From the NCBI GenBank assembly GCA_022508305.1, contig JAFLVM010000003.1, positions 39,111 to 103,110 on the forward strand: a stretch of DNA of 64,000 bases. Direction: 5' to 3'. A model generated the notes under the pieces. That model ran no database searches. It was not told the origin of the DNA and was given only the letters and a program-made list of their open reading frames with translations. How positions within the stretch are numbered: position 1 is the first letter of the stretch; every line of letters begins with the position of its first letter. Positions 20,049 to 63,591 of the stretch are shown here, one piece after another. Both the position numbers and the translations under genes were made by a program. Origin of the DNA: Clostridiales bacterium (GTDB lineage Bacteria; Bacillota; Clostridia; Christensenellales; CAG-314).

Positions 20049-20124
20049 TGGTCTACCTGCCGGGATTCGAACCCGGAACGATGCCGTCGGAGGGCATTAT
20101 TTTATCCAATTAGACTACAGGTAG
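20049..20124 (-). tRNA. tRNA-Arg(CCG)
   Basis: Acceptor CTACCTG/CAGGTAG, anticodon arm ATGCC-CT CCG AC-GGCAT, T-loop TTCGAAT, encoded CCA. Confidence 0.9.
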
Positions 20125-20280
20125 TTATGTGCGATTATAATATTACTTTATAATTATAACATACAATTGTTAGGTAGGCAATTAAATAATTTGTTGTAAT
20201 CAGAACAAAAAAATTGCTAAAAGTGGTGCAAAACTGTTGATAAATCTATCTTTTTATGTTATATTAAGTAAGCAATTCGT

Positions 20281-20366
20281 GCTGGTGTGGTGGAATGGCA
20301 GACGCGTCGGACTCAAAATCCGATGTTGGTGACAACGTGTGGGTTCAAGTCCCACCACCAGCACCA
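20281..20366 (+). tRNA. tRNA-Leu(CAA)
   Basis: Acceptor GCTGGTG/CACCAGC, anticodon arm TCGGA-CT CAA AA-TCCGA, long variable arm, TTCAAGT, CCA. Confidence 0.96.
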
Positions 20367-54076: not shown

Positions 54077-54177
54077 AATTTGTGGTAAAAATTCGAAAAA
54101 CAAGACGGTAACACGATTCGTTCAATTTTAATAGTATGTTTGTAGGGGTAACCCAAAAATGTACAAGGAGAAAGAAA

Positions 54178-54537
54178 ATGAATTGTTGTAGAAATTCAAA
54201 TAACTGCTGTCACAACGAGAGCAATCAAAACAGGCTGATTATCATCGAACGCGGTCCGAGAGGTCCGAGAGGCTTCACGGGTCCTCAAGGTATCATGGGG
54301 CCTCCGGGAAATGACGGAGCAACAGGCGCAACAGGCGCGACAGGTCCCCAAGGTTTGCAAGGTATTCGAGGCGTAACCGGTCCTACAGGCGCAACTGGTG
54401 CGACAGGCGCAATCGGTCCCACGGGCCCTCAAGGCCCTTCCGGTATTGACGGCGTTGACGGCGGCGTAGGTCCCACAGGTCCGACGGGAGCCACCGGAGC
54501 AACAGGAGCTACTGAACAAGTAACTTATGGGAAATAA
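54178..54537 (+). CDS. Short collagen-like protein (BclA-like GXY repeats), possibly truncated
   Basis: RBS AAGGAG; Cys-rich N-terminus; 29 contiguous Gly-X-Y triplets rich in GAT/GPT; ends 7 aa after the last triplet. Confidence 0.75.
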
Positions 54538-54723
54538 CAAAAGATATAGTCAAAGCATCAAAATATGGTAAAAATAGTGGTATTTATTACATAAAAACAG
54601 CAGGAAATCTAATCCTGCTTTTTTATATACAAATTTCACAAAATCTCTTAACAAATTGAAAATAACTTAGGTATATATTTATAATTATTTTAAGTTTATT
54701 GTTTATAGGAAAAATGTACTAAC

Positions 54724-56490
54724 GTGAAAAGAAAAAGACTTTTTATTATTGGCAATGGATTTGATTTAGCAAATGGGATCAATACCTCATATAGAAGCTT
54801 TTATAGTTATCTTAAACAAAATGACTACGAGACGTTTAATTTAACTTGTGCACTGTTTTGGGATCAATATGATGAAACGGATTCGCTGTGGAGTGATTTT
54901 GAGGCAAATTTGTCTGCATTCAACAGCACTTCTTTTGATATTGATGTAGATATCCAAACCCTTGATATTGAGCATGTAGCTGTAGCAGACGCAAAAATTG
55001 CAAGAGTGATAGATGCTTGGAAAAAAAATCTGTACGTAATGTTTAAATCTTGGATTCGTGATATTTTTCAGGGTATTGTTACAGTGGAGCCTTTAGCCAA
55101 TAACACAGACATTTTTTTGAATTTTAATTATACCGCTACGTTGGAACTACTATATGGTATTCCTTCACAAAATATTTTACACATACATAATAGCATTGAA
55201 AACGATACTCTAATATTGGGACATGGAGTGGAATTCAATCGGCAAAAAATTTTAGAATTTTATGGTTTAATTGAAAATGGAAAGATTAAATCGAGTATAG
55301 AAGATTATCTATATGCCTATACGCACTATTATATAGGTTCATTACTAAGAAAAGATGTGCAATCAATAATTAAAAATAAAATGGGTTTCTTTGACGATTA
55401 CTCTGAGGTGGAAGAAATTGTTATTTTGGGTCATTCATTAGGAGCGGTGGATTTGCCGTATTTTAAGTGGATAGCGGATAGATACACAGATTGTCAATGG
55501 AAGGTGGGCTATTATAAGGAAAACGAAATTGAAAACTTTAAGAATAGTCTGAAAATGATTGGTGTAAATAACTGCAAATTTGAAGAAACAAAAAAATTGA
55601 TTGTTAATTACTTTAATAAATTATGGACAAAAGATGAACTTTATTTGGATGATTGTACTGACCATATTGAAAGAAACTTGAAGAAAGAAAATGAAAACAG
55701 TGATTCTGAAATACAGGAAATATTACGGAATCTTTCTCTGGAACATGAAACAAATAACAATGAAATAATCAAATTGAGTGAGAAGCCAGTACATGATGAA
55801 GAATACTATTTGAAAACAATAAGCAGTTACCGAAGGCAGTTAATTATCGGGGAAATTATTAGAAAATATTTGGCGGCTGCCTTGGGCGGACTCGGCGTAT
55901 ACTATCAATCTGCCGGAAACGATGAGAAAGCATTAGAGCAATATACAGCTGCTCTACAGGAGTATATTATCTATGGATTGGAGTCATTAGAAGATTCGCT
56001 CAATGAGTTTACTGTAGTATTACATAATATAGCGATCATTTATAATAAACACGATGAAATAACTGTAAAGGAGTTACAAATATTTGATACAATTTCGAGC
56101 GCAGATTTATTGCCGTTAATACCGCAATCTATAAATGATTACGGAGGTGGGTGTTTTCTGCTAGGATTGGCTTTTTTCAAAAGAATGGATTATAAACGAG
56201 CAATTATCTTTTTAACGATTGCTAAGAATGCTTACGAACAAATTGGAAACAAGCCAATTCGCATCGCATTATGTAATTTAAATAAAGCTAAGTGTCTAAT
56301 TAATTTAAAAGAATACACAAAAGCTGAAGAAATCTTGTTGAAAACGATCTCTATTTTACAGAATCTAACAGGTACACGCACGGAAGGATTGCTAAAAGAA
56401 TCTTATTTGTGCCTTTATACAGTGTATAGAGAGCAAAATAATATGGAACAGGCAAAGTTGTATTTTACAAAGTGTCAAAATATTATTTAA
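54724..56490 (+). CDS. AbiH-family (SIR2-like) abortive infection protein fused to C-terminal TPR-like repeats
   Basis: LFIIGNGFDLA, WSDFE, LNFNYT, LHIH, LILGHG, ILGHSLGAVDLPYF; C-terminal LGVYY...A...Y, LGLAF...DY..A TPR-like helices. Confidence 0.8.
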   Translation: MKRKRLFIIGNGFDLANGINTSYRSFYSYLKQNDYETFNLTCALFWDQYDETDSLWSDFEANLSAFNSTSFDIDVDIQTLDIEHVAVADAKIARVIDAWKKNLYVMFKSWIRDIFQGIVTVEPLANNTDIFLNFNYTATLELLYGIPSQNILHIHNSIENDTLILGHGVEFNRQKILEFYGLIENGKIKSSIEDYLYAYTHYYIGSLLRKDVQSIIKNKMGFFDDYSEVEEIVILGHSLGAVDLPYFKWIADRYTDCQWKVGYYKENEIENFKNSLKMIGVNNCKFEETKKLIVNYFNKLWTKDELYLDDCTDHIERNLKKENENSDSEIQEILRNLSLEHETNNNEIIKLSEKPVHDEEYYLKTISSYRRQLIIGEIIRKYLAAALGGLGVYYQSAGNDEKALEQYTAALQEYIIYGLESLEDSLNEFTVVLHNIAIIYNKHDEITVKELQIFDTISSADLLPLIPQSINDYGGGCFLLGLAFFKRMDYKRAIIFLTIAKNAYEQIGNKPIRIALCNLNKAKCLINLKEYTKAEEILLKTISILQNLTGTRTEGLLKESYLCLYTVYREQNNMEQAKLYFTKCQNII

Positions 56491-56595
56491 CTGCAAAATA
56501 ATTCTGAGACGATAAAGAATATGTGCATAGTTGTAGGCATACTTAATCCAATATGTTATAATAATTCGAAGACAATACAAATGGAGATATAACAA

Positions 56596-58437
56596 ATGAT
56601 AAATTTGATTTTTAAGACCAAAGAAAGCTACAATGTAAGTCCCAATAGTTTGTTGCCTATAAATAACGATTATAATTATAAAGGTAGCAATTGTTGTTTT
56701 GGAGCTTTGTCAAAAACGAATGTTTTTATTGGTGAGAATAATTCAGGTAAAAGTAGATTTTTAAGGAATTTATTCGAAACAGAGTTTTCGGCAATTTGTG
56801 ATGAGCAAATTGATAGATTTTTATCTGAAACAGGTAATTATGCGTTTAATTCTGGTGAGATAGAAAAACTGAAATCTAAAATTACACAATTCAATAGAAT
56901 ATATGAATCTAATGGGCGAGATGCTGCTCCTTATGGTTACGGAGGCAATGACTTTTTTTCCAAATTGAAAAAACATTCAATCTCATGCAGCAAAACCGAC
57001 AGATTTTATTTCCCTATAATTAGAGGAACCAAAGATTATCAAACTGTTATCAATAAAAAGTTGGAAACATTTATTTCCCAATCTCCCATTCAAAATAAGG
57101 ATTCTATTAACCATTATATTAGTTTGCTAAATCTAGAAGCCCAGGGTTTAGAGTCATTTGATGTGTATAATGAAATTATTAAGCATGAATATTTTAGGGA
57201 TGACAAAAGTTTAGGCGAGAACATTTTAACGGGCGGTAAGCTTTATAAAGAGATAAAGTCTATGTTATTAGGCGAGGAGTCTCAGCGTAAAACAATTGAA
57301 GATTTCCAAATATTCTTGCGTGATACTTTTTTCAGCGACTACGATAAAGTTCAGCTTATTCCCAATGAACAAAAGAAAGTTTTATATGTCAAAATTGGTA
57401 AAGATGAGCGGGCAATATACAACTGGGGTGATGGTACACAACAGTTAATAATTATTCTGTTTTCATTGTTTAAGCATAAAGATGAACAAAATAAGTTGTT
57501 TTTTATTGAGGAGCCTGAATTATATTTACATCCAGGTGTGTTAAGGAAGTTCATTGAGGTAATCAACTCGGATATCTTTAAAAACCATCAATATTTCATT
57601 ACGACTCATTCCAATATCGTGCTAGATACCTCTGCCGATAATGTCAGTATGTCAATATTTAAATTTAAGAAAGTTAAAGATGCAACAAAAAACAATGGCA
57701 AACCTTTCTTGATTGAACAATGTAATAATGGAGATGTATCATTACTAAACGAATTAGGTGTTAGAAATTCGAGCGTATTCTTATCGAATTGCAGCATATG
57801 GGTTGAGGGAATTACAGATAGACTATATTTGAAACATTATTTGAAACTATATGTCGAACACTTAAATAAAGAAGATCCCTCTAAAAAGGAGTATAGGGAA
57901 AATATCGACTATACATTTATTGAATATGGAGGAAGTAATCTTGTTCATTTCAATTTTGGTGAAGATGACATTTCGGATAGTATCAATGCAAAATATATCA
58001 ACAGTAAAATTTTCCTGATTGCAGATAATGACAACACTGAAGAAGGAACAGATAAAGCCATAAGGAAAGCAAGACTAAGAGAACAACTAGGGGAAAATTT
58101 CTATGAACTTACTGTTAAAGAGATTGAAAATTTAATAACTCAAGAAACTTTAAGAAAAGTGCTAATAGTGCAAAATCCTAAGAAAGAAAAAGAAATCAAT
58201 AAAGCGTTTGATGTAAAATACGACTTTGAGCACGAGAGTTTAGGTGAGTTTGTTGATTTATTATTCACGAATGATGAAATAAAGAAATATGCTGCCGAAA
58301 GTGGAACAATAAAAAACAAATTAGCTTTCTGTAAGACTGTTATAGAAGTTACCAAGGATTACGACGACTTATCTGACGAAGCAAAAAAACTAACAGAAAA
58401 AGTATATACGTTTATAAAGAAAAATAACGAGATATAA
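56596..58437 (+). CDS. OLD-family-like ABC ATPase-TOPRIM nuclease
   Basis: Walker A GENNSGKS, signature-like WGDG, Walker B IEEPELYLHP, TTHS, TOPRIM WVEGITD and ADND, EIEN. Confidence 0.85.
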   Translation: MINLIFKTKESYNVSPNSLLPINNDYNYKGSNCCFGALSKTNVFIGENNSGKSRFLRNLFETEFSAICDEQIDRFLSETGNYAFNSGEIEKLKSKITQFNRIYESNGRDAAPYGYGGNDFFSKLKKHSISCSKTDRFYFPIIRGTKDYQTVINKKLETFISQSPIQNKDSINHYISLLNLEAQGLESFDVYNEIIKHEYFRDDKSLGENILTGGKLYKEIKSMLLGEESQRKTIEDFQIFLRDTFFSDYDKVQLIPNEQKKVLYVKIGKDERAIYNWGDGTQQLIIILFSLFKHKDEQNKLFFIEEPELYLHPGVLRKFIEVINSDIFKNHQYFITTHSNIVLDTSADNVSMSIFKFKKVKDATKNNGKPFLIEQCNNGDVSLLNELGVRNSSVFLSNCSIWVEGITDRLYLKHYLKLYVEHLNKEDPSKKEYRENIDYTFIEYGGSNLVHFNFGEDDISDSINAKYINSKIFLIADNDNTEEGTDKAIRKARLREQLGENFYELTVKEIENLITQETLRKVLIVQNPKKEKEINKAFDVKYDFEHESLGEFVDLLFTNDEIKKYAAESGTIKNKLAFCKTVIEVTKDYDDLSDEAKKLTEKVYTFIKKNNEI

Positions 58438-58512
58438 ATTTAGTTATTTGCTAGGGTATTCTGCCAAGTATGAGTCATCTTGTGACACAATTTATTATAT
58501 ACATAATTAACG

Positions 58513-58541
58513 TTGACAAATTGGTTTCGGTATTTTAAAAT
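58513..58541 (+). promoter_or_regulatory. Sigma-A promoter
   Basis: TTGACA-17bp-TAAAAT. Confidence 0.75.
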
Positions 58542-58601
58542 GTAATTGCTTAATTTAGGCGCCTAAAAATATAATTAAGCGTGTCAAGGAGGTGATGCTA
58601 C

Positions 58602-58736
58602 ATGGAGAGTTTTTTCGAAACTCTTATGCAGTCGATTAAGGGTCCGGTTCGCGCCACCGATCACTTCCTTATTCCAACTATTCACGACTATCCGACAGAT
58701 AGTCGTTTTTTATCTGTGATAGCTAATTTAGCTTAA
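58602..58736 (+). CDS. Putative 44-aa small peptide, or ORF within a small RNA
   Basis: RBS AAGGAGGTG; MESFFETLMQSIKGPVRATDHFLIPTIHDYPTDSRFLSVIANLA; contains an internal terminator-like hairpin. Confidence 0.4.
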   Translation: MESFFETLMQSIKGPVRATDHFLIPTIHDYPTDSRFLSVIANLA

Positions 58737-58909
58737 TGAGTCTTCACAGTCTAATTAAAATAGGGCAGCGTGTACAATTCGGTTGTTTGTATAAAATTAG
58801 GCGTTTTGCAGAATACTATATCTGACATAGTATGTAAAAATGTCAATAAAGTTTAATTTTTAAATGTAAATTTATTGCTTTTTGTATTTACTTATGATAA
58901 ACTATGATT

Positions 58910-59111
58910 GTAATTATGGTATGTAAACCATAATATAATAAATTTAATACCGATGCGTAACCACTCCAATGGGTTATTGAAATGCATTAAGCTACCTGTC
59001 GCGTATCGAAGTTAATTGGATGGATTTACTAATGAGTCAAACAATAAACGATAATGATTAATTCCGCGAGAGAGAAACGTATTATGCGTGTCTATTTCTT
59101 GCGTTTTTTTT
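58910..59111 (+). ncRNA. Structured pseudoknotted RNA candidate (drum/DUF3800-associated-like)
   Basis: Promoter TTGCTT-17-TAAACT (58875-58903); stems CGATGCG/CGTATCG and TAACC/GGTTA; loop TCCAAT pairs with ATTGGA; terminator 59065-59111. Confidence 0.6.
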
Positions 59112-59138
59112 GTCGTTGAGGAATTTACAGAAGACAAA

Positions 59139-59627
59139 ATGAAGATCATACAATCATCACACATAGCGGCCTTTAACTACTATGAAAAGAATTTAAAGGA
59201 ACTAGCCATCAATAAATTAAAGAATTTTAAGATTGCTACGAGCGATATCATGGAGAATCTGTACTTGATTCTGGTATCTCTTATTCCTTTATTTTTCTAC
59301 CCGGCATTTTATTACGTCGTTGACAAAGAGTATAACTTCATATATGGAATATTTAATAATCCTGACATAATGCTGTTGTCAATTCCATATATAATGCATT
59401 GTATACTATGGATATCAAGTCGAGAGGGATTACGATGGAAGAAACCCACAGTGGGGTGGTATGCTCTCATCATAATTGTGTCGGTACTAGTTTATTTATT
59501 GTTAAAGTTAAATAGTACTGAAACAAGCTTGATGCGAATTGCAATAATATGGTTATTTTTTGGAATGACTATTGTTTCGGGAATTATTGGAACTTTCGTG
59601 GTATGCTTGCATAAGGAGGAGGAATAA
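59139..59627 (+). CDS. Hypothetical four-TM membrane protein
   Basis: Four hydrophobic segments; ATG 59139 preferred because the longer ORF starts inside the terminator. Confidence 0.7.
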   Translation: MKIIQSSHIAAFNYYEKNLKELAINKLKNFKIATSDIMENLYLILVSLIPLFFYPAFYYVVDKEYNFIYGIFNNPDIMLLSIPYIMHCILWISSREGLRWKKPTVGWYALIIIVSVLVYLLLKLNSTETSLMRIAIIWLFFGMTIVSGIIGTFVVCLHKEEE

Positions 59628-59628
59628 A

Positions 59629-59976
59629 ATGGAAATTGCAATCTTGGTTTTAGTAATTATTATGTTCCTATTTTCTTTAGGTGCAATAATTTGTATTGTA
59701 AGTTTCGCCTATAAGGGAAAGAAACAGAAAACTAAAAAGAGTGAAATAAATATTCAAAAAAATAAAGAAATATTGTCAACATCGCGTTCTTCTAAAGAGT
59801 GTGCAAATGCTGGTTGGGAGATAGTAAGTAATAATGCTACGGTCTTTACTGTAAATACCAGAAAATCAAAATATAGTGATGAGCGTGAAAGCCATCATTT
59901 TAGCCAAAATCTTACAGATAAAAGATTAGCTTTATTGAATCAGATAGATGGAGAATGTGAATATGGACGATATTGA
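59629..59976 (+). CDS. Hypothetical single-TM protein
   Basis: RBS AAGGAGGAGG, ATG 59629; N-terminal TM then basic soluble tail. Confidence 0.7.
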   Translation: MEIAILVLVIIMFLFSLGAIICIVSFAYKGKKQKTKKSEINIQKNKEILSTSRSSKECANAGWEIVSNNATVFTVNTRKSKYSDERESHHFSQNLTDKRLALLNQIDGECEYGRY

Positions 59977-60535
59977 ATTTGTCTCTATGAAAACAGCTGA
60001 CATATTTAAAAAATATAATATTAAAGAAGAGCGATATAAAAGTAGATACGAAGCTCTTTTGAATGATATAAATAATTACATCAAAGCATCTAAACTTGAT
60101 AAGACTCAAGTTGTATTGAACAAATATAGTTTGAGTTGTATGTTGGTTGATTTTTTTATGGACATTGGGAGACTGAAAGAGTTTCATCATATTGATCGTA
60201 TCAACAGTATTAAAATAGTTTCCTATATTTCATATTGGTTTCTTAGAAGAAAACCGATACAAGTTTTATCTGATGAGGATAGTCTTTTATATATCAACGA
60301 AAAGTTTATAACGCTTTACATTTTGGATTTTTTGATGAACGATGAGCGTGGAAATATATTAGACAGAGAAGAAAAAGGGCTTGTAGCATTTAGGGAACAG
60401 TTATGCTATTATCTTAAATATCGGCATTTTGATGCACAATCTATTGAGATGATACTAATGTCTTTTTTTGCTGGACAAATTTACGAAAATTTAGAAGAAG
60501 ATTTAAGCGACAAATTACCAAAATCTGAGAATTAA
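59948..60535 (+). CDS. Conserved-looking helical hypothetical protein
   Basis: DFFMDIGRLKEFH...KIVSYISYWFLRRKPIQ...INEKF; overlaps the upstream gene; start may be 59963. Confidence 0.75.
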   Translation: MENVNMDDIEFVSMKTADIFKKYNIKEERYKSRYEALLNDINNYIKASKLDKTQVVLNKYSLSCMLVDFFMDIGRLKEFHHIDRINSIKIVSYISYWFLRRKPIQVLSDEDSLLYINEKFITLYILDFLMNDERGNILDREEKGLVAFREQLCYYLKYRHFDAQSIEMILMSFFAGQIYENLEEDLSDKLPKSEN

Positions 60536-60722
60536 AGATATTTTTAATGAAGTTTGCTTAACAAAACACCGACGTAACTAGTATATAAATATACACACAG
60601 GGAAAAGACAGATATTTTTGTCAAATATAAATTATCTAAAGTACATAATTAGGCACAGTTCAAAAGAGCTGTGCCTAATGCTTTGTATGTCGAAGAATCC
60701 GACTTGTTCTGTCGGCTTTCTA

Positions 60723-60752
60723 TTGACATTAATACTATTTTTTTGCTATAAT
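60723..60752 (+). promoter_or_regulatory. Sigma-A promoter with extended -10
   Basis: TTGACA-18bp-TATAAT with TG at the extended position. Confidence 0.8.
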
Positions 60753-60758
60753 CAAAAA

Positions 60759-60928
60759 AGCCAAATCATAACCGAATATATAGTTTTTCTTCGAGCATAG
60801 TTATAGGTAGGACTATACTTTGTCATCGCGCTTAATTTCTCGTTGAGAAATTCGGTTTTGGTTTGGCGACTAGCGATGGACGGTATATTCTACGATGTCG
60901 TTCTTTGCAAGAGGAGCGACATCTTTTT
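60759..60928 (+). ncRNA. Structured pseudoknotted RNA candidate (skipping-rope-like)
   Basis: 18-bp stem 60760-77/60850-67 with one mismatch; pseudoknot GTCATCGC/GCGATGGAC; terminator 60894-60928. Confidence 0.65.
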
Positions 60929-61441
60929 ATGTGTGAGAATATCAATAAGAAACAAACAGTATGCTTTACGGGGCACAGAAGTCAGAAACTTCCATGGCGG
61001 TTTAATGAGGAAGATGAACGTTGTAAGTCAATGAAGAAGACTTTGCGCACGGAAATCGAAAAAACAATACGAAGAGGTTTTAGAACATTTCTCTGTGGGA
61101 TGGCTCTTGGTTTTGATATGATATGTGCTGAAATGGTGCTTGACCTTAAAAAGCACTATAAAGGAATCGAGATTATTGGTGCGCTTCCATGCAGAACTCA
61201 AGACTTACAATGGTCTGATAATTGTAGAGCAAGATACAGAAGTATTTTATCGCAATTGGACGGTATTCGTTGCATCTATGACAAGTATATTGGTTCTGAG
61301 TGTATGCTTGAACGTAACAGATTTATGGTAGACAATTCATGCGTAATGATCGCTTTGTTTGATGGTTTATCAGGAGGGACAAAATCCACTATAGAATATG
61401 CTCGTAATCAGGGGTTGGAAATCATTATTATCAAGCCATAA
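60929..61441 (+). CDS. SLOG superfamily protein (YspA/DUF1273-like)
   Basis: CFTGHR, FLCGMALGFD, LPC, ERNRFMVD, SGGTKSTIEYA. Confidence 0.85.
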   Translation: MCENINKKQTVCFTGHRSQKLPWRFNEEDERCKSMKKTLRTEIEKTIRRGFRTFLCGMALGFDMICAEMVLDLKKHYKGIEIIGALPCRTQDLQWSDNCRARYRSILSQLDGIRCIYDKYIGSECMLERNRFMVDNSCVMIALFDGLSGGTKSTIEYARNQGLEIIIIKP

Positions 61442-61794
61442 ACTTCGATAAATATATCGATTAAATATTTTTTTAAATTTTTTTATTTTTAGACTTAACT
61501 ATTTGTTGGTTTTCAAAGTATATATTAAAAAAAGGTACATTATATAGGCTTTTAGTATAAAGTATTATAATCATAAGGTACTTTTTGCTTATTTAAGGAA
61601 ACAAAAGTAATTTGCAAATAAGAAGACTAAAATTTATGAGAAAAGAAAATAATTAAGCGACTTTACATTTTATTGTAAAGTCACTTTTCCTATATTGCAT
61701 AGTTCACGATGACTATAGTGCAACACCCCACTATAACTATTTATATTATAGTTATCTATTGACTATAATTATAGTTATGACAAGGGGGTGGGTT

Positions 61795-62112
61795 ATGGAT
61801 GTTAAAGTAAGAATAAAAGAACTTATGAAAGAGCGTGGATTATCAATCTATGCTTTGGCAGTAAAATCCGATTTATCTCAAGCTTGCATAGCTAATTGGT
61901 ATAGTGAACGTAAATATATGCCTAGCATTGAAGCCTTAGAAAAGATTTGCGTTGGACTCGGAATAAGTATGGCAGAGTTATTTTGCGATAAAGATTCTGA
62001 ATGGTTGCCAGTAAAAGAAGAGAAAAGAGAATTGTTTTTCAAATGGGACAAATTAGATGCAGATGAACGTGAACTTATAATGCGCACTATAGATAAATTA
62101 ATTGAGAAGTAG
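61795..62112 (+). CDS. XRE-family HTH regulator
   Basis: RIKELMKERGLSIYALA...PSIEALEKICVGLGISMAELF; ATG 61795 after GGGGG. Confidence 0.88.
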   Translation: MDVKVRIKELMKERGLSIYALAVKSDLSQACIANWYSERKYMPSIEALEKICVGLGISMAELFCDKDSEWLPVKEEKRELFFKWDKLDADERELIMRTIDKLIEK

Positions 62113-62217
62113 TGTACGATAAATTAAAATTTTTAAAAATCTACAAATGAAAAGGGGCAGATGCACAAAGAGTAATACTCGAGATAATACTACTATTTTA
62201 TAATCATACGCGTATTT

Positions 62218-62712
62218 ATGAAGGCTAAAGAGTTTAACAAATTATTAAAGGCTATTAACTTGGAACATAATTTCAACAAAATTTATGTTGAATACTACCC
62301 TTTAATAGTTAGGTACACGAACTATTTATATCGTGGAAGAAAGATAGGTAAAGATGTCGCACAAGAGATTTTTACCTACTTTTTAACACACGAAAATTTA
62401 CCGTACGTTAATCATCCTACAGCTTGGATAAAAACTCTTTGTAAAAATATCGGAAGCAAACACATTAATACTGACGTTCAACTAGACGAAAGCATTATTG
62501 CAACAACAGTCAATGAACAAGTGCCATTAAAAGAGATTATAGAGATACTACCTTCTGATGAAAAGGAAATAATAGAACTTAAATACATACACGGCTTTAC
62601 ACTCAAAGAAATTGCTGAAATAAAGAAACGATCATACACCGCAGTACTCAAGCATCATTATAGAATATTAAAAAAACTAGAAAAGTTTTTGTCCAAAAAA
62701 TCCTTAAACTAA
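62218..62712 (+). CDS. ECF-type sigma-70 factor
   Basis: Region 2 (YYPLIV...KDVAQEIF...AWI) and region 4 (LPSDEKEIIELKYIHGFTLKEIAE). Confidence 0.8.
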   Translation: MKAKEFNKLLKAINLEHNFNKIYVEYYPLIVRYTNYLYRGRKIGKDVAQEIFTYFLTHENLPYVNHPTAWIKTLCKNIGSKHINTDVQLDESIIATTVNEQVPLKEIIEILPSDEKEIIELKYIHGFTLKEIAEIKKRSYTAVLKHHYRILKKLEKFLSKKSLN

Positions 62713-62748
62713 ACACTTATTTATAAGTGATGTTTAGGAGGACAAAAC

Positions 62749-63591
62749 ATGAAAAAAATATCTGTTTGCTTAGTAATTATATTACTAGCAACAATTCTTA
62801 CGGGAGTTTCTACAGCTTATGATGAAAATATCAGCAATACAATAGACCAGAGTTATAGTGACAGTACTAAGTATTTTGTAAAAACATATGGAGCTACTAC
62901 TTTTACAGAAAAAACAGAAAAAATAGCCTACACAAATAGAACAGATCAAAGCAGAAGCGTTGCACTGTTTGCACCAACATATGTTATTTCTGGAGTAACA
63001 TGCGTACCGACGGCAGGAACTACAGTCCTAGGATTTTATGATCTATTTTATCCTGATTTAATACCAAATTTTACTGCAGGTACAATTGTTTATGGAATGT
63101 ATAACTATTATCCGGCAACTACACATGTGACAACAGCAGCATTGCAATTGGCGAAAGATATGGGATTGAATGACCCCGCAACAGATGGTGCGACTGTTAG
63201 CAATTTTAAAACCGGCATGCAAATCTACTGCCAAAGAAAGGGATTGAGTATAAGTGCCCAAAGTTGTATGAATTCAGGAAGTTTTAATTACACTTTGGTA
63301 AAGGAATATGTAAATAATTTAACGCCAGTAGTAATATTCACGACCAAGTTTAATATTGGTTTTATAGAAACGCAGAGTAATACAGATACTGTTCATAGCT
63401 ATATTGCGACAGAACCGCATGCTATGTTTGTATATGGGTATAGTGAATATACATATACATTATCTAATGGACAAACAAAAACCAATCGCTATCTGCAAGT
63501 GTCTTCAGGACTTGGAATTTTAGATAGCGCACTAGTAAATATCGATGCTGATATATTAATTAATGATGCTTATGCAGTTACCATTTATTAA
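62749..63591 (+). CDS. Secreted papain-like (C10/C39-like) cysteine peptidase
   Basis: Signal peptide; CVPTAG (Cys), HAMFVYGY (His), YLQVSSGLG. Confidence 0.65.
   Translation: MKKISVCLVIILLATILTGVSTAYDENISNTIDQSYSDSTKYFVKTYGATTFTEKTEKIAYTNRTDQSRSVALFAPTYVISGVTCVPTAGTTVLGFYDLFYPDLIPNFTAGTIVYGMYNYYPATTHVTTAALQLAKDMGLNDPATDGATVSNFKTGMQIYCQRKGLSISAQSCMNSGSFNYTLVKEYVNNLTPVVIFTTKFNIGFIETQSNTDTVHSYIATEPHAMFVYGYSEYTYTLSNGQTKTNRYLQVSSGLGILDSALVNIDADILINDAYAVTIY

Follow-up and report, generated by a model that had tools for sequence, protein, structure and literature searches.

Among described systems, the one whose logic appears, by analogy, to be nearest to that of the operon studied here is PANGU, in which one sensor occurs with either a toxSAS or a transmembrane (TM) effector, an arrangement that has been demonstrated experimentally (preprint 10.64898/2026.04.06.716658). 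Our operon lies in a 64,000-nucleotide (nt) stretch of contig JAFLVM010000003.1 of a Clostridiales bacterium (hereafter the window), and consists of three small genes encoding a membrane protein (4TM), a short protein that carries a domain which we name M, and a helical protein at 59963–60535 which we name HEL. As in PANGU, a conserved and apparently non-enzymatic partner is combined either with a toxSAS-type alarmone synthetase (type I in PANGU) or with a transmembrane effector (type II), and the genes form small operons within defence islands. The PANGU sensor, however, is a YejK-like nucleoid-associated protein of about 333 amino acids (aa) encoded in a two-gene operon, whereas the partners here are M, of about 70 aa, and HEL, of about 190 aa, neither of which matches any Pfam family. 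For a YejK-like sensor, no Pfam family was found at E ≤ 0.1 in the three operon proteins beyond chance-level matches.

On balance, we think it somewhat probable, from the comparisons set out below, that positions 58831–60555 form a self-contained, horizontally mobile toxin–antitoxin or abortive-infection module, which has an exchangeable effector and a new regulatory core composed of M and HEL. This reading is based on the large and patchily distributed family to which HEL belongs, the recurrence of the M+HEL core, the homology of M between different architectures and the way in which its location changes with them, the RelA_SpoT matches, the gene fusions and overlaps, and the analogy with PANGU. 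If it is correct, two protein families that carry no annotation would be the regulatory core of a new toxin–antitoxin or abortive-infection family, and their toxSAS-like, membrane and SIR2 partners would provide experimental handles.

Several other known systems share parts of this arrangement. Most relatives of the operon begin with a RelA_SpoT protein followed by small overlapping genes, as in the toxSAS toxin–antitoxin pair FaRel2/ATfaRel2, and one HEL representative is a RelA_SpoT–HEL fusion reminiscent of fused CapRel (PMC7229694, PMC11782079). The window differs from these in that its first gene encodes 4TM, which has no Pfam match and no RelA_SpoT domain, the RelA_SpoT feature being found in 58 of 81 related loci. 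The ATfaRel2/pZFD antitoxin has a β-sheet fold with a YXXY motif, according to PMC11782079, whereas M is predicted to be entirely helical (predicted local distance difference test, pLDDT, 74). No Pfam or PDB sequence match connects M or HEL to the known classes of toxSAS antitoxin (pZFD/ATfaRel2-like, PAD1-Panacea and small alarmone hydrolase), and the HEL model has no fold match. Panacea (PanA), studied in the NetFlax network, is similar in that a single domain, for neutralization or sensing, partners toxins that are unrelated to one another, among them membrane-depolarizing proteins and toxSAS (PMC8832971 and PMC10440598). Unlike Panacea, the proteins here have no DUF4065/Panacea match, two conserved proteins occur together, and the combinations are few and old.

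The small overlapping genes and patchy distribution are layout features of type II toxin–antitoxin systems. In type III (ToxIN-like) loci, the toxin gene lies behind a non-coding RNA that has its own promoter and terminator, and read-through sets the ratio of RNA to protein. The present operon differs from type III loci in having neither tandem repeats nor an endoribonuclease toxin, and the RNA in front of it is dispensable in most relatives. Finally, by language-model features the clusters closest to HEL are those of QatB (0.85, with 174–178 shared features), and QatB is also all-helical (PMC13376578). For a relation between QatB and HEL there was no PADLOC or NCBIfam match (32 HEL members), and no PDB sequence or Foldseek match, although PF28083 lies outside the Pfam release used and the fold library may be older than the QatB structures. 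The HEL operon has no QatA, QatC or QatD gene next to it.

The features of the operon and its leader, all on the forward strand, are as follows.

58871–58899, +: promoter of RNA-1 and the operon, read from the sequence (−35 TTGCTT, 17-nt spacer, TG-extended −10 TAAACT)
58906–59111, +: RNA-1, non-coding leader (5′ hairpin, near-invariant core of ~87 nt, terminator stem 59065–59103, U-run)
59139–59627, +: 4TM membrane protein, 162 aa, proposed effector or toxin; homologues hold the first position in 17 of 81 loci
59629–59976, +: M protein, 115 aa (N-terminal TM anchor and C-terminal M domain of ~66 aa)
59963–60535, +: HEL protein, 190 aa, all-helical, with the motif YWFLRRKPIQ; this ATG is common to the homologues, and the open reading frame (ORF) opens at 59948

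HEL belongs to a large family. A word-indexed search found 109 relatives, and 230 of 286 candidate stretches, taken from one-genome-per-species contigs, encode HEL relatives. Among cluster representatives there are 1283 matches at E ≤ 1e-3, 629 at 1e-10 and 218 at 1e-30; the ~1283 clusters are defined at 50% identity and come mostly from gut anaerobes. HEL is nevertheless patchy in its distribution: of 41 related genomes, only 2 have it. In an alignment of 32 members, 12 columns are invariant, including W97, K102, P103, Q105, N117, E118 and R159, which gives the family the signature W..RKP.Q / NE.F. AlphaFold2 predicts about eight helices (pLDDT 87.6, predicted template modelling score, pTM, 0.82). 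When this model was compared with the PDB using Foldseek, nothing was found at E ≤ 0.001, the best match having E 1.1 and a template modelling score below 0.3, and neither HEL nor M, used as profiles against PDB sequences, gave a match. No description of HEL, M, RNA-1 or RNA-2 was found in the literature; as the families are nameless and the supplementary datasets of PMC7229694, PMC10440598 and PMC5737381 lay outside the search, this does not prove that they are undescribed.

The surroundings of HEL were surveyed in the best 80 of the 230 HEL loci together with the window (81 loci), by calling ORFs and classifying the neighbours with iterated hidden Markov models (HMMs). M lies directly 5′ of HEL in 78 of these loci. 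The most common arrangement contains M, RelA_SpoT and HEL (58 loci), followed by M, 4TM and HEL (16 loci); one locus has 4TM without a detected M, four have M only, three of which end at a contig edge, and two have neither. In the RelA_SpoT type the order is a protein of ~300 aa, an M of ~75 aa and HEL, while in the 4TM type it is 4TM, a TM-anchored M of ~115 aa and HEL. The six ~300-aa proteins that were scanned all match RelA_SpoT (PF04607, E 3.4e-11 to 2.2e-13), and 53 of 59 keep ExQxR[TS], which we take to be the synthetase catalytic motif. These proteins are distant from solved structures (best E 0.019), and neither they nor the M relatives have a PADLOC match. The 4TM protein of the window is predicted to have three to four hydrophobic spans, and a look-alike search of a protein atlas returned unnamed clusters only.

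The two architectures have homologous middle genes according to hhalign, which aligned 17 anchored with 33 soluble (~75-aa) middle proteins over the C-terminal 66 residues (Prob 96.5, E 7.2e-10). It is this common domain that we call M. Its location follows that of the first gene product: in RelA_SpoT loci M is soluble (58 of 58), and in 4TM loci it has one or more predicted TM helices (16 of 16), counts that overstate independence, as the loci are related. This strict link between the anchoring of M and the location of the effector leads to a testable model of how the parts touch. The model of M, of moderate quality (pLDDT 74, pTM 0.35), has three helices and no sheet. A complex between HEL and the M domain was predicted with an interaction prediction score from aligned errors (ipSAE) of 0.48 (median of three runs), against 0.05 for the best control, with at least 65% of contacts in common between runs and a partner pLDDT of at least 54; it was graded as weak support. 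Of 80 solved complexes 58 pass the mark, as do 2 of 110 mismatched pairs; passing scores of 0.60 or less were reached by only 7 of the 80 solved complexes but by both passing mismatches.

Gene fusions were found among the 150 best representatives. Three proteins join M to HEL (P0188, P0198 and P0173), two are tandem HEL–HEL proteins, one joins RelA_SpoT to HEL (P0249; RelA_SpoT-type HMM rsh, 1e-28), and in one HEL is followed by a SIR2_2 domain (P0241, 4e-19). A further protein, P0146 (269 aa), has HEL behind an N-terminus like that of the glutamine amidotransferase GlmS (PF13522, 2.4e-08), for which a gene-calling error, or an insertion at the beginning of glmS, is the probable explanation. 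Within the window the three genes are tightly coupled, as the first-pass annotation had stated, with a 1-nt gap between 4TM and M and then an overlap of 14 or 29 nt between M and HEL.

In the mechanism that we propose, the core would be M, a helical domain of ~70 residues that is here fixed to the membrane by its N-terminal helix, together with the all-helical HEL of ~190 residues. The first gene would be exchangeable, being 4TM in the window and a RelA_SpoT (toxSAS-like) nucleotidyltransferase in most relatives, and 4TM would be a growth-arresting effector. We suggest that M tethers HEL to the effector, because the location of M follows that of the effector, and that M and HEL together hold the effector silent until a trigger, for example phage infection, frees it. 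Transcription from a single promoter would pass through the RNA-1 terminator, which would keep expression of the operon low. The AbiH and OLD genes on one side, and the SLOG gene with its RNA (RNA-2) on the other, are neighbours outside the module.

A number of observations weigh against this reading. The label of effector comes to 4TM solely from its position and its membrane nature. No family was found for the 4TM, M or HEL protein of the window in Pfam, PADLOC or PHROGs, and the 32 HEL members had no match in PADLOC (E ≤ 5, 0 relevant families) or NCBIfam; because no model from these four sources matches the three proteins, the label of defence derives from context. HEL has no match in plasmid or phage record collections at E ≤ 1e-5. 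The predicted complex of HEL and M passed weakly, and several loci lie among housekeeping genes rather than defence genes. A bare M+HEL pair, with neither kind of first gene, occurs on three viral contigs, so the core is able to exist by itself and may be an active pair in its own right. Exchange of the effector also appears to be infrequent. A quick tree of HEL places 15 of the 17 4TM-type rows together on one side, which is weakly supported, and all 58 RelA_SpoT-type rows opposite them; 9 label changes are needed, against 21.5 in shuffles, and the well-supported branches force only about 2–4 changes of architecture. From this tree, the two architectures would be old sister groups, between which swapping is rare and ancient.

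The bare pairs are the starting point for the alternative that survives best, namely that M and HEL are themselves a toxin–antitoxin pair, the RelA_SpoT or 4TM gene being an accessory or a second toxin. The M–HEL fusions and tandem HEL–HEL proteins would fit such a pair, and HEL has invariant polar residues (K, Q, N, E and R) from which an active site could be built. Of the 81 loci, however, 76 do have a RelA_SpoT or 4TM first gene; the membrane anchoring of M tracks that gene; HEL is fused to RelA_SpoT and SIR2, both of which are known effector domains; and HEL does not resemble a known toxin fold. We therefore regard this alternative as unlikely.

The neighbours of the operon bear on a second alternative. 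They vary between loci, and include an integrase (L005), a TIR-domain protein (L008) and housekeeping genes (L004 and L012), from which we conclude, on the gene content of these loci, that the operon moves as one unit and settles among unrelated genes. Members of the 4TM-type group come from Bacillota, Spirochaetota, Synergistota and Melainabacteria, and the group points to horizontal transfer, since it includes genomes of Treponema, Synergistales and Gastranaerophilales. Small alarmone synthetases have housekeeping roles too, and the operon could instead be a membrane-associated regulatory or stress module, with the RelA_SpoT relatives producing a nucleotide signal used in normal physiology. 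The missing matches to defence models and the housekeeping genes that flank some loci would agree with this. It is nevertheless unlikely, given a patchy spread that crosses phyla, the overlapping genes, the HEL–SIR2 fusion, and the loci that have an integrase, a TIR-domain protein or AbiH/OLD as neighbours; moreover, a 4TM protein cannot replace a nucleotide synthetase in a signalling pathway. At L008 (3642–7352, Petralouisia muris) the order is 4TM, M and HEL, and then a protein of 1236 aa that begins with a TIR domain (PF13676, 1.6e-06), with ParA-like genes on the 5′ side.

RNA-1 precedes the operon in the window and in two sister loci, L003 and L004. Its fold is only slightly better than that of shuffled sequences (z −1.89, 9/200). 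Both promoter hexamers are conserved in register in the two sister loci; the promoter of the window scores below the threshold of the consensus scan. The core of ~87 nt is 95% identical in L003 and 87% identical in L004, whereas the adjacent genes are 65–84% identical at the DNA level. Since the copies differ by indels of 1 and 2 nt, there is no conserved reading frame in RNA-1, while the 5′ hairpin and the terminator vary in sequence but keep their pairing by means of double changes. A candidate pseudoknot could form through 9 bp of complementarity between the loop 58961–58970 and 59015–59023, both strands of which are invariant. No other promoter fits into the 27 nt before the first gene, so the operon must, to judge from this spacing, be transcribed by read-through of the RNA-1 terminator. 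No RNA-seq run was listed as holding this sequence, and one DNA run contained 0.05 of the sampled words.

The covariance model of RNA-1 (R2) matches only the window, L003 (in genome G002) and L004. This amounts to 2 of 151 genomes of the order, and to 3 of 53 sources, made up of 49 genome loci with HEL, 3 viral loci and the window itself. At L005 a closely related operon has an ordinary promoter in place of RNA-1. Because it is found in so few sources and is absent from L005, RNA-1 is taken to be a rare, lineage-specific leader. Two pattern scans of viral contigs for RNA-1 gave no match, and gapped-pattern matches in three metagenome stretches were dismissed as chance, as they all lie within GC-rich coding sequence and have nothing further in common with RNA-1. 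A leader terminator was also considered as a family-wide feature and rejected: a terminator-like hairpin lies within 300 nt 5′ of the first gene in 29 of 72 loci, but in most cases it looks like the terminator of the upstream gene.

The layout of promoter, RNA, terminator and toxin-like gene resembles that of type III loci, and the RNA-1 core is better conserved than the genes; both would be expected if RNA-1 were the true antitoxin, neutralizing a membrane toxin, with M and HEL having some other role. We consider this highly improbable, in view of the closely related L005 operon and the other sources that have no RNA-1. In addition, Pfam gives no endoribonuclease-like toxin, and Tandem Repeats Finder (minimum score 30) found no tandem repeats in 58400–61500 outside 61445–61485, and none in RNA-1 or RNA-2.

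The genes and RNAs on either side of the operon, also on the forward strand, are listed next.

54724–56490, +: AbiH-TPR (PF14253, 5.6e-46)
56596–58437, +: OLD-like ATPase (AAA_21, 5.5e-17; PADLOC Old, 1.7e-17)
60648–60679, +: terminator-like hairpin behind the operon (14-bp stem with 6 GC pairs)
60723–60752, +: promoter of RNA-2 (TTGACA, 18 nt, TATAAT, with TG; 12/12 consensus matches)
60757–60928, +: RNA-2 (long multi-helix hairpin, conserved 3′ single-stranded stretch, terminator 60894–60923)
60929–61441, +: YpsA-type SLOG protein, 170 aa (PF06908, 6.8e-28, 98.2 bits against a cut-off of 27.7)

The sequence features at 58871–61441 bear out the order given in the first-pass annotation, which ran from promoter, RNA-1 and terminator through the 4TM, single-TM and helical proteins to promoter, RNA-2, terminator and SLOG gene; its naming of AbiH-TPR and OLD upstream, and of the SLOG gene, agrees with the Pfam and PADLOC matches above. 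The match of the OLD-like ATPase to the OLD TOPRIM domain is weak (0.028, below the Pfam cut-off). Terminator-like sites are in excess of shuffled sequence (6 against 1.1 expected), whereas promoter-like sites are not (17 against 18.7), although the site at 60723 has the perfect consensus.

Comparison with the sister loci divides this block into units. L003 aligns to the window at 54128–54561, which corresponds to a collagen-like gene (the collagen-repeat gene 54136–54537, PF01391), and then at 58831–60555, and in L003 only ~70 nt separates the two matches. The 4.27 kb between them in the window (54561–58831), which contains AbiH-TPR, the OLD-like ATPase and a small unit at 58513–58712, is therefore an insertion relative to L003. 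On the 3′ side of HEL, homology stops at 60555 in L003 and at 60528 in L004, before RNA-2, and the hairpin at 60648–60679 falls outside the block that the two loci have in common. The shared mobile block therefore consists of RNA-1 and the three genes, and excludes RNA-2 and SLOG. As read from these boundaries, the region is three separate units side by side: the AbiH/OLD insertion, RNA-1 with the operon (58831–60555), and RNA-2 with SLOG. The site between the collagen-repeat gene and RNA-1 looks like an insertion hot spot for defence genes, and adjacency in the window thus overstates linkage, because the three units are neighbours within such a site.

The first-pass annotation had joined RNA-1, the three genes, RNA-2 and SLOG into a single system acting together. 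This idea draws on their adjacency on one strand and on the layout common to both RNAs (promoter, structured RNA, terminator, gene), and is exceedingly improbable, as the sister-locus homology ends at 60528–60555, SLOG lies beside HEL in 0 of 80 other loci (BLAST and a SLOG HMM), RNA-1 is missing from 50 of the 53 HEL sources, and RNA-2 relatives occur in G014, where the HEL query has no match, and in G056, where the fetched stretch shares nothing with the operon. What remains of the earlier proposal is narrower. A toxin–antitoxin or defence module with a membrane effector is retained for the operon, through its M+HEL core, its RelA_SpoT or 4TM first gene and the fusions, but not for RNA-2 and SLOG; of the expected companions of the helical protein, M (78/81) and 4TM (17/81) do co-occur with it, RNA-1 does so in only 3/53 sources, and SLOG in 0/80 other loci. 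PADLOC returned 0 families for the three operon proteins, and Foldseek gave no PDB fold match for the predicted structure of HEL. The expectation of new protein partners is supported as well: no recognizable DUF3800 gene was seen, and M and HEL belong to no known family.

Both RNAs had been described as structured; this is clear for RNA-2, the fold of which beats shuffled sequences (z −3.99, 0/200), and is only weakly so for RNA-1. Copies ~80% identical occur in two genomes of the genus (BLAST), and the promoter is conserved in these relatives, G014 and G056. A covariance model (R1) built from the window and the two genus copies scores the RNA-2 of the window at 153.6 bits. It detects relatives in 8 of 151 genomes from the order, and in 17 of 151 from another family within it. 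G156 contains five copies (L106, L112, L114 and L115), with 640 nt between two of them, and G300 has two (L126/L132), separated by 480 nt.

Covariation was assessed with 24 members (E ≤ 1e-6), in an alignment that was fitted to the model and hence favours covariation. With this proviso, 93.3% of cells are paired, against 72.4% in shuffles; both sides change in 34 of 42 pairs, which 0 of 500 shuffles reach; and the covariation score is 0.553, against 0.205 in shuffles (again reached by 0 of 500) and at most 0.105 when the partners are slid. The terminator stems differ in sequence between members and keep their pairing. By this measure RNA-2 is a genuine structured RNA family absent from Rfam 15, with strong covariation and recurring beside SLOG genes. 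The pseudoknot that had been proposed for it is not supported, since the candidate is no better than shuffles (74.4% paired against 73.8%, 219/500).

A naming of these RNAs as drum or skipping-rope was likewise dropped: cmscan with the 4227 families of Rfam 15 gave no such match in the window when the gathering score was applied, no relevant one in 58300–61800 at E ≤ 10, and none at the RNA positions of 13 related loci at E ≤ 0.1. The drum model RF02958 (gathering score 43 bits) has 0 matches at E ≤ 1 in the whole genome. Skipping-rope, presumed to be among these families, had no match in the same cmscan of Rfam 15; RF03064, which had been taken as its accession, proved to be RAGATH-18. RNA-2 does resemble the class of terminator-ended RNAs with protein partners (PMC5737381) in its conserved structure and intrinsic terminator, and, in part of its loci, in recurring beside one kind of protein gene (SLOG), at varying distance and either upstream or downstream. 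It differs in having no match to the models of that class, in being leader-like in at least 10 loci, and in having no visible DUF3800 gene nearby.

RNA-2 relatives have a SLOG-like gene within 1.5 kb, always on the strand of the RNA, in 9 of 30 loci from three genera, a count in which two loci overlap and for which the SLOG HMM was seeded from these same loci; the 0 of 80 HEL loci noted above provide the background. The suggested pairing of RNA and SLOG gene thus has some basis for RNA-2, while its link to the operon is not supported. Judged by the separate occurrence of the two, RNA-2 with SLOG is a unit separate from the operon: the HEL query has no match in G014, and the stretches fetched from G014 and G056 have no similarity to the operon. 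In both genomes, the SLOG-like gene is followed by unannotated proteins with hydrophobic N-termini. One or two genes for XRE-type regulators often lie between RNA-2 and the SLOG gene, on the opposite strand. Proteins with one or two XRE/CI-type helix-turn-helix (HTH) domains are convergent with RNA-2 relatives and share the terminator region with them at L102 (2474–3422), L103 (5931–6968), L105, L106, L112, L130 and L117.

In at least 10 inspected loci, including the window, the RNA-2 relative lies 30–220 nt 5′ of a gene on the same strand, in the manner of a leader, and the genes behind these relatives are varied, encoding membrane, secreted and regulatory proteins. In the window, the terminator stem (60894–60923) contains the ribosome-binding site of the SLOG gene. 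The segment just 5′ of the terminator can pair with the 5′ arm of the terminator, and would then be a candidate antiterminator. RNA-2 may act in cis, as a leader, or may be a free-standing RNA that has a protein partner.

A more far-reaching proposal would combine these elements. In it, M and HEL would be an unrecognized, widespread sensor–adaptor pair in bacterial immunity that licenses at least three unrelated killing proteins (4TM, a toxSAS-like synthetase and a SIR2 NADase), and RNA-1 and RNA-2, two independent cases of a structured RNA with a terminator just ahead of a toxin-like gene, would each be a functional partner (antitoxin, ligand or scaffold) of the protein encoded behind it, and not a passive leader. 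We regard this combination as improbable.

Other features of the window lie outside these units or beside them. Two divergently oriented tRNA genes at 20052–20363 are the sole Rfam matches in the window. On the 3′ side of SLOG, at 61759–63591, are a gene for an XRE-type HTH protein, one for a sigma-70 region-4 protein, and one for a 280-aa protein that has a hydrophobic N-terminus and belongs to no family. Between OLD and RNA-1, the small unit at 58513–58712 is a further arrangement of promoter (11/12), structured RNA (fold z −3.36) and terminator (58684–58706), in which a 12-bp helix pairs a Shine–Dalgarno-like stretch. It contains a 44-codon ORF that is probably not translated as such, because it crosses the terminator. 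A copy that is 87% identical occurs in G018, where it lies ~40 nt 5′ of a Ku-like gene and an ATP-dependent DNA ligase-like gene, both named by eye.

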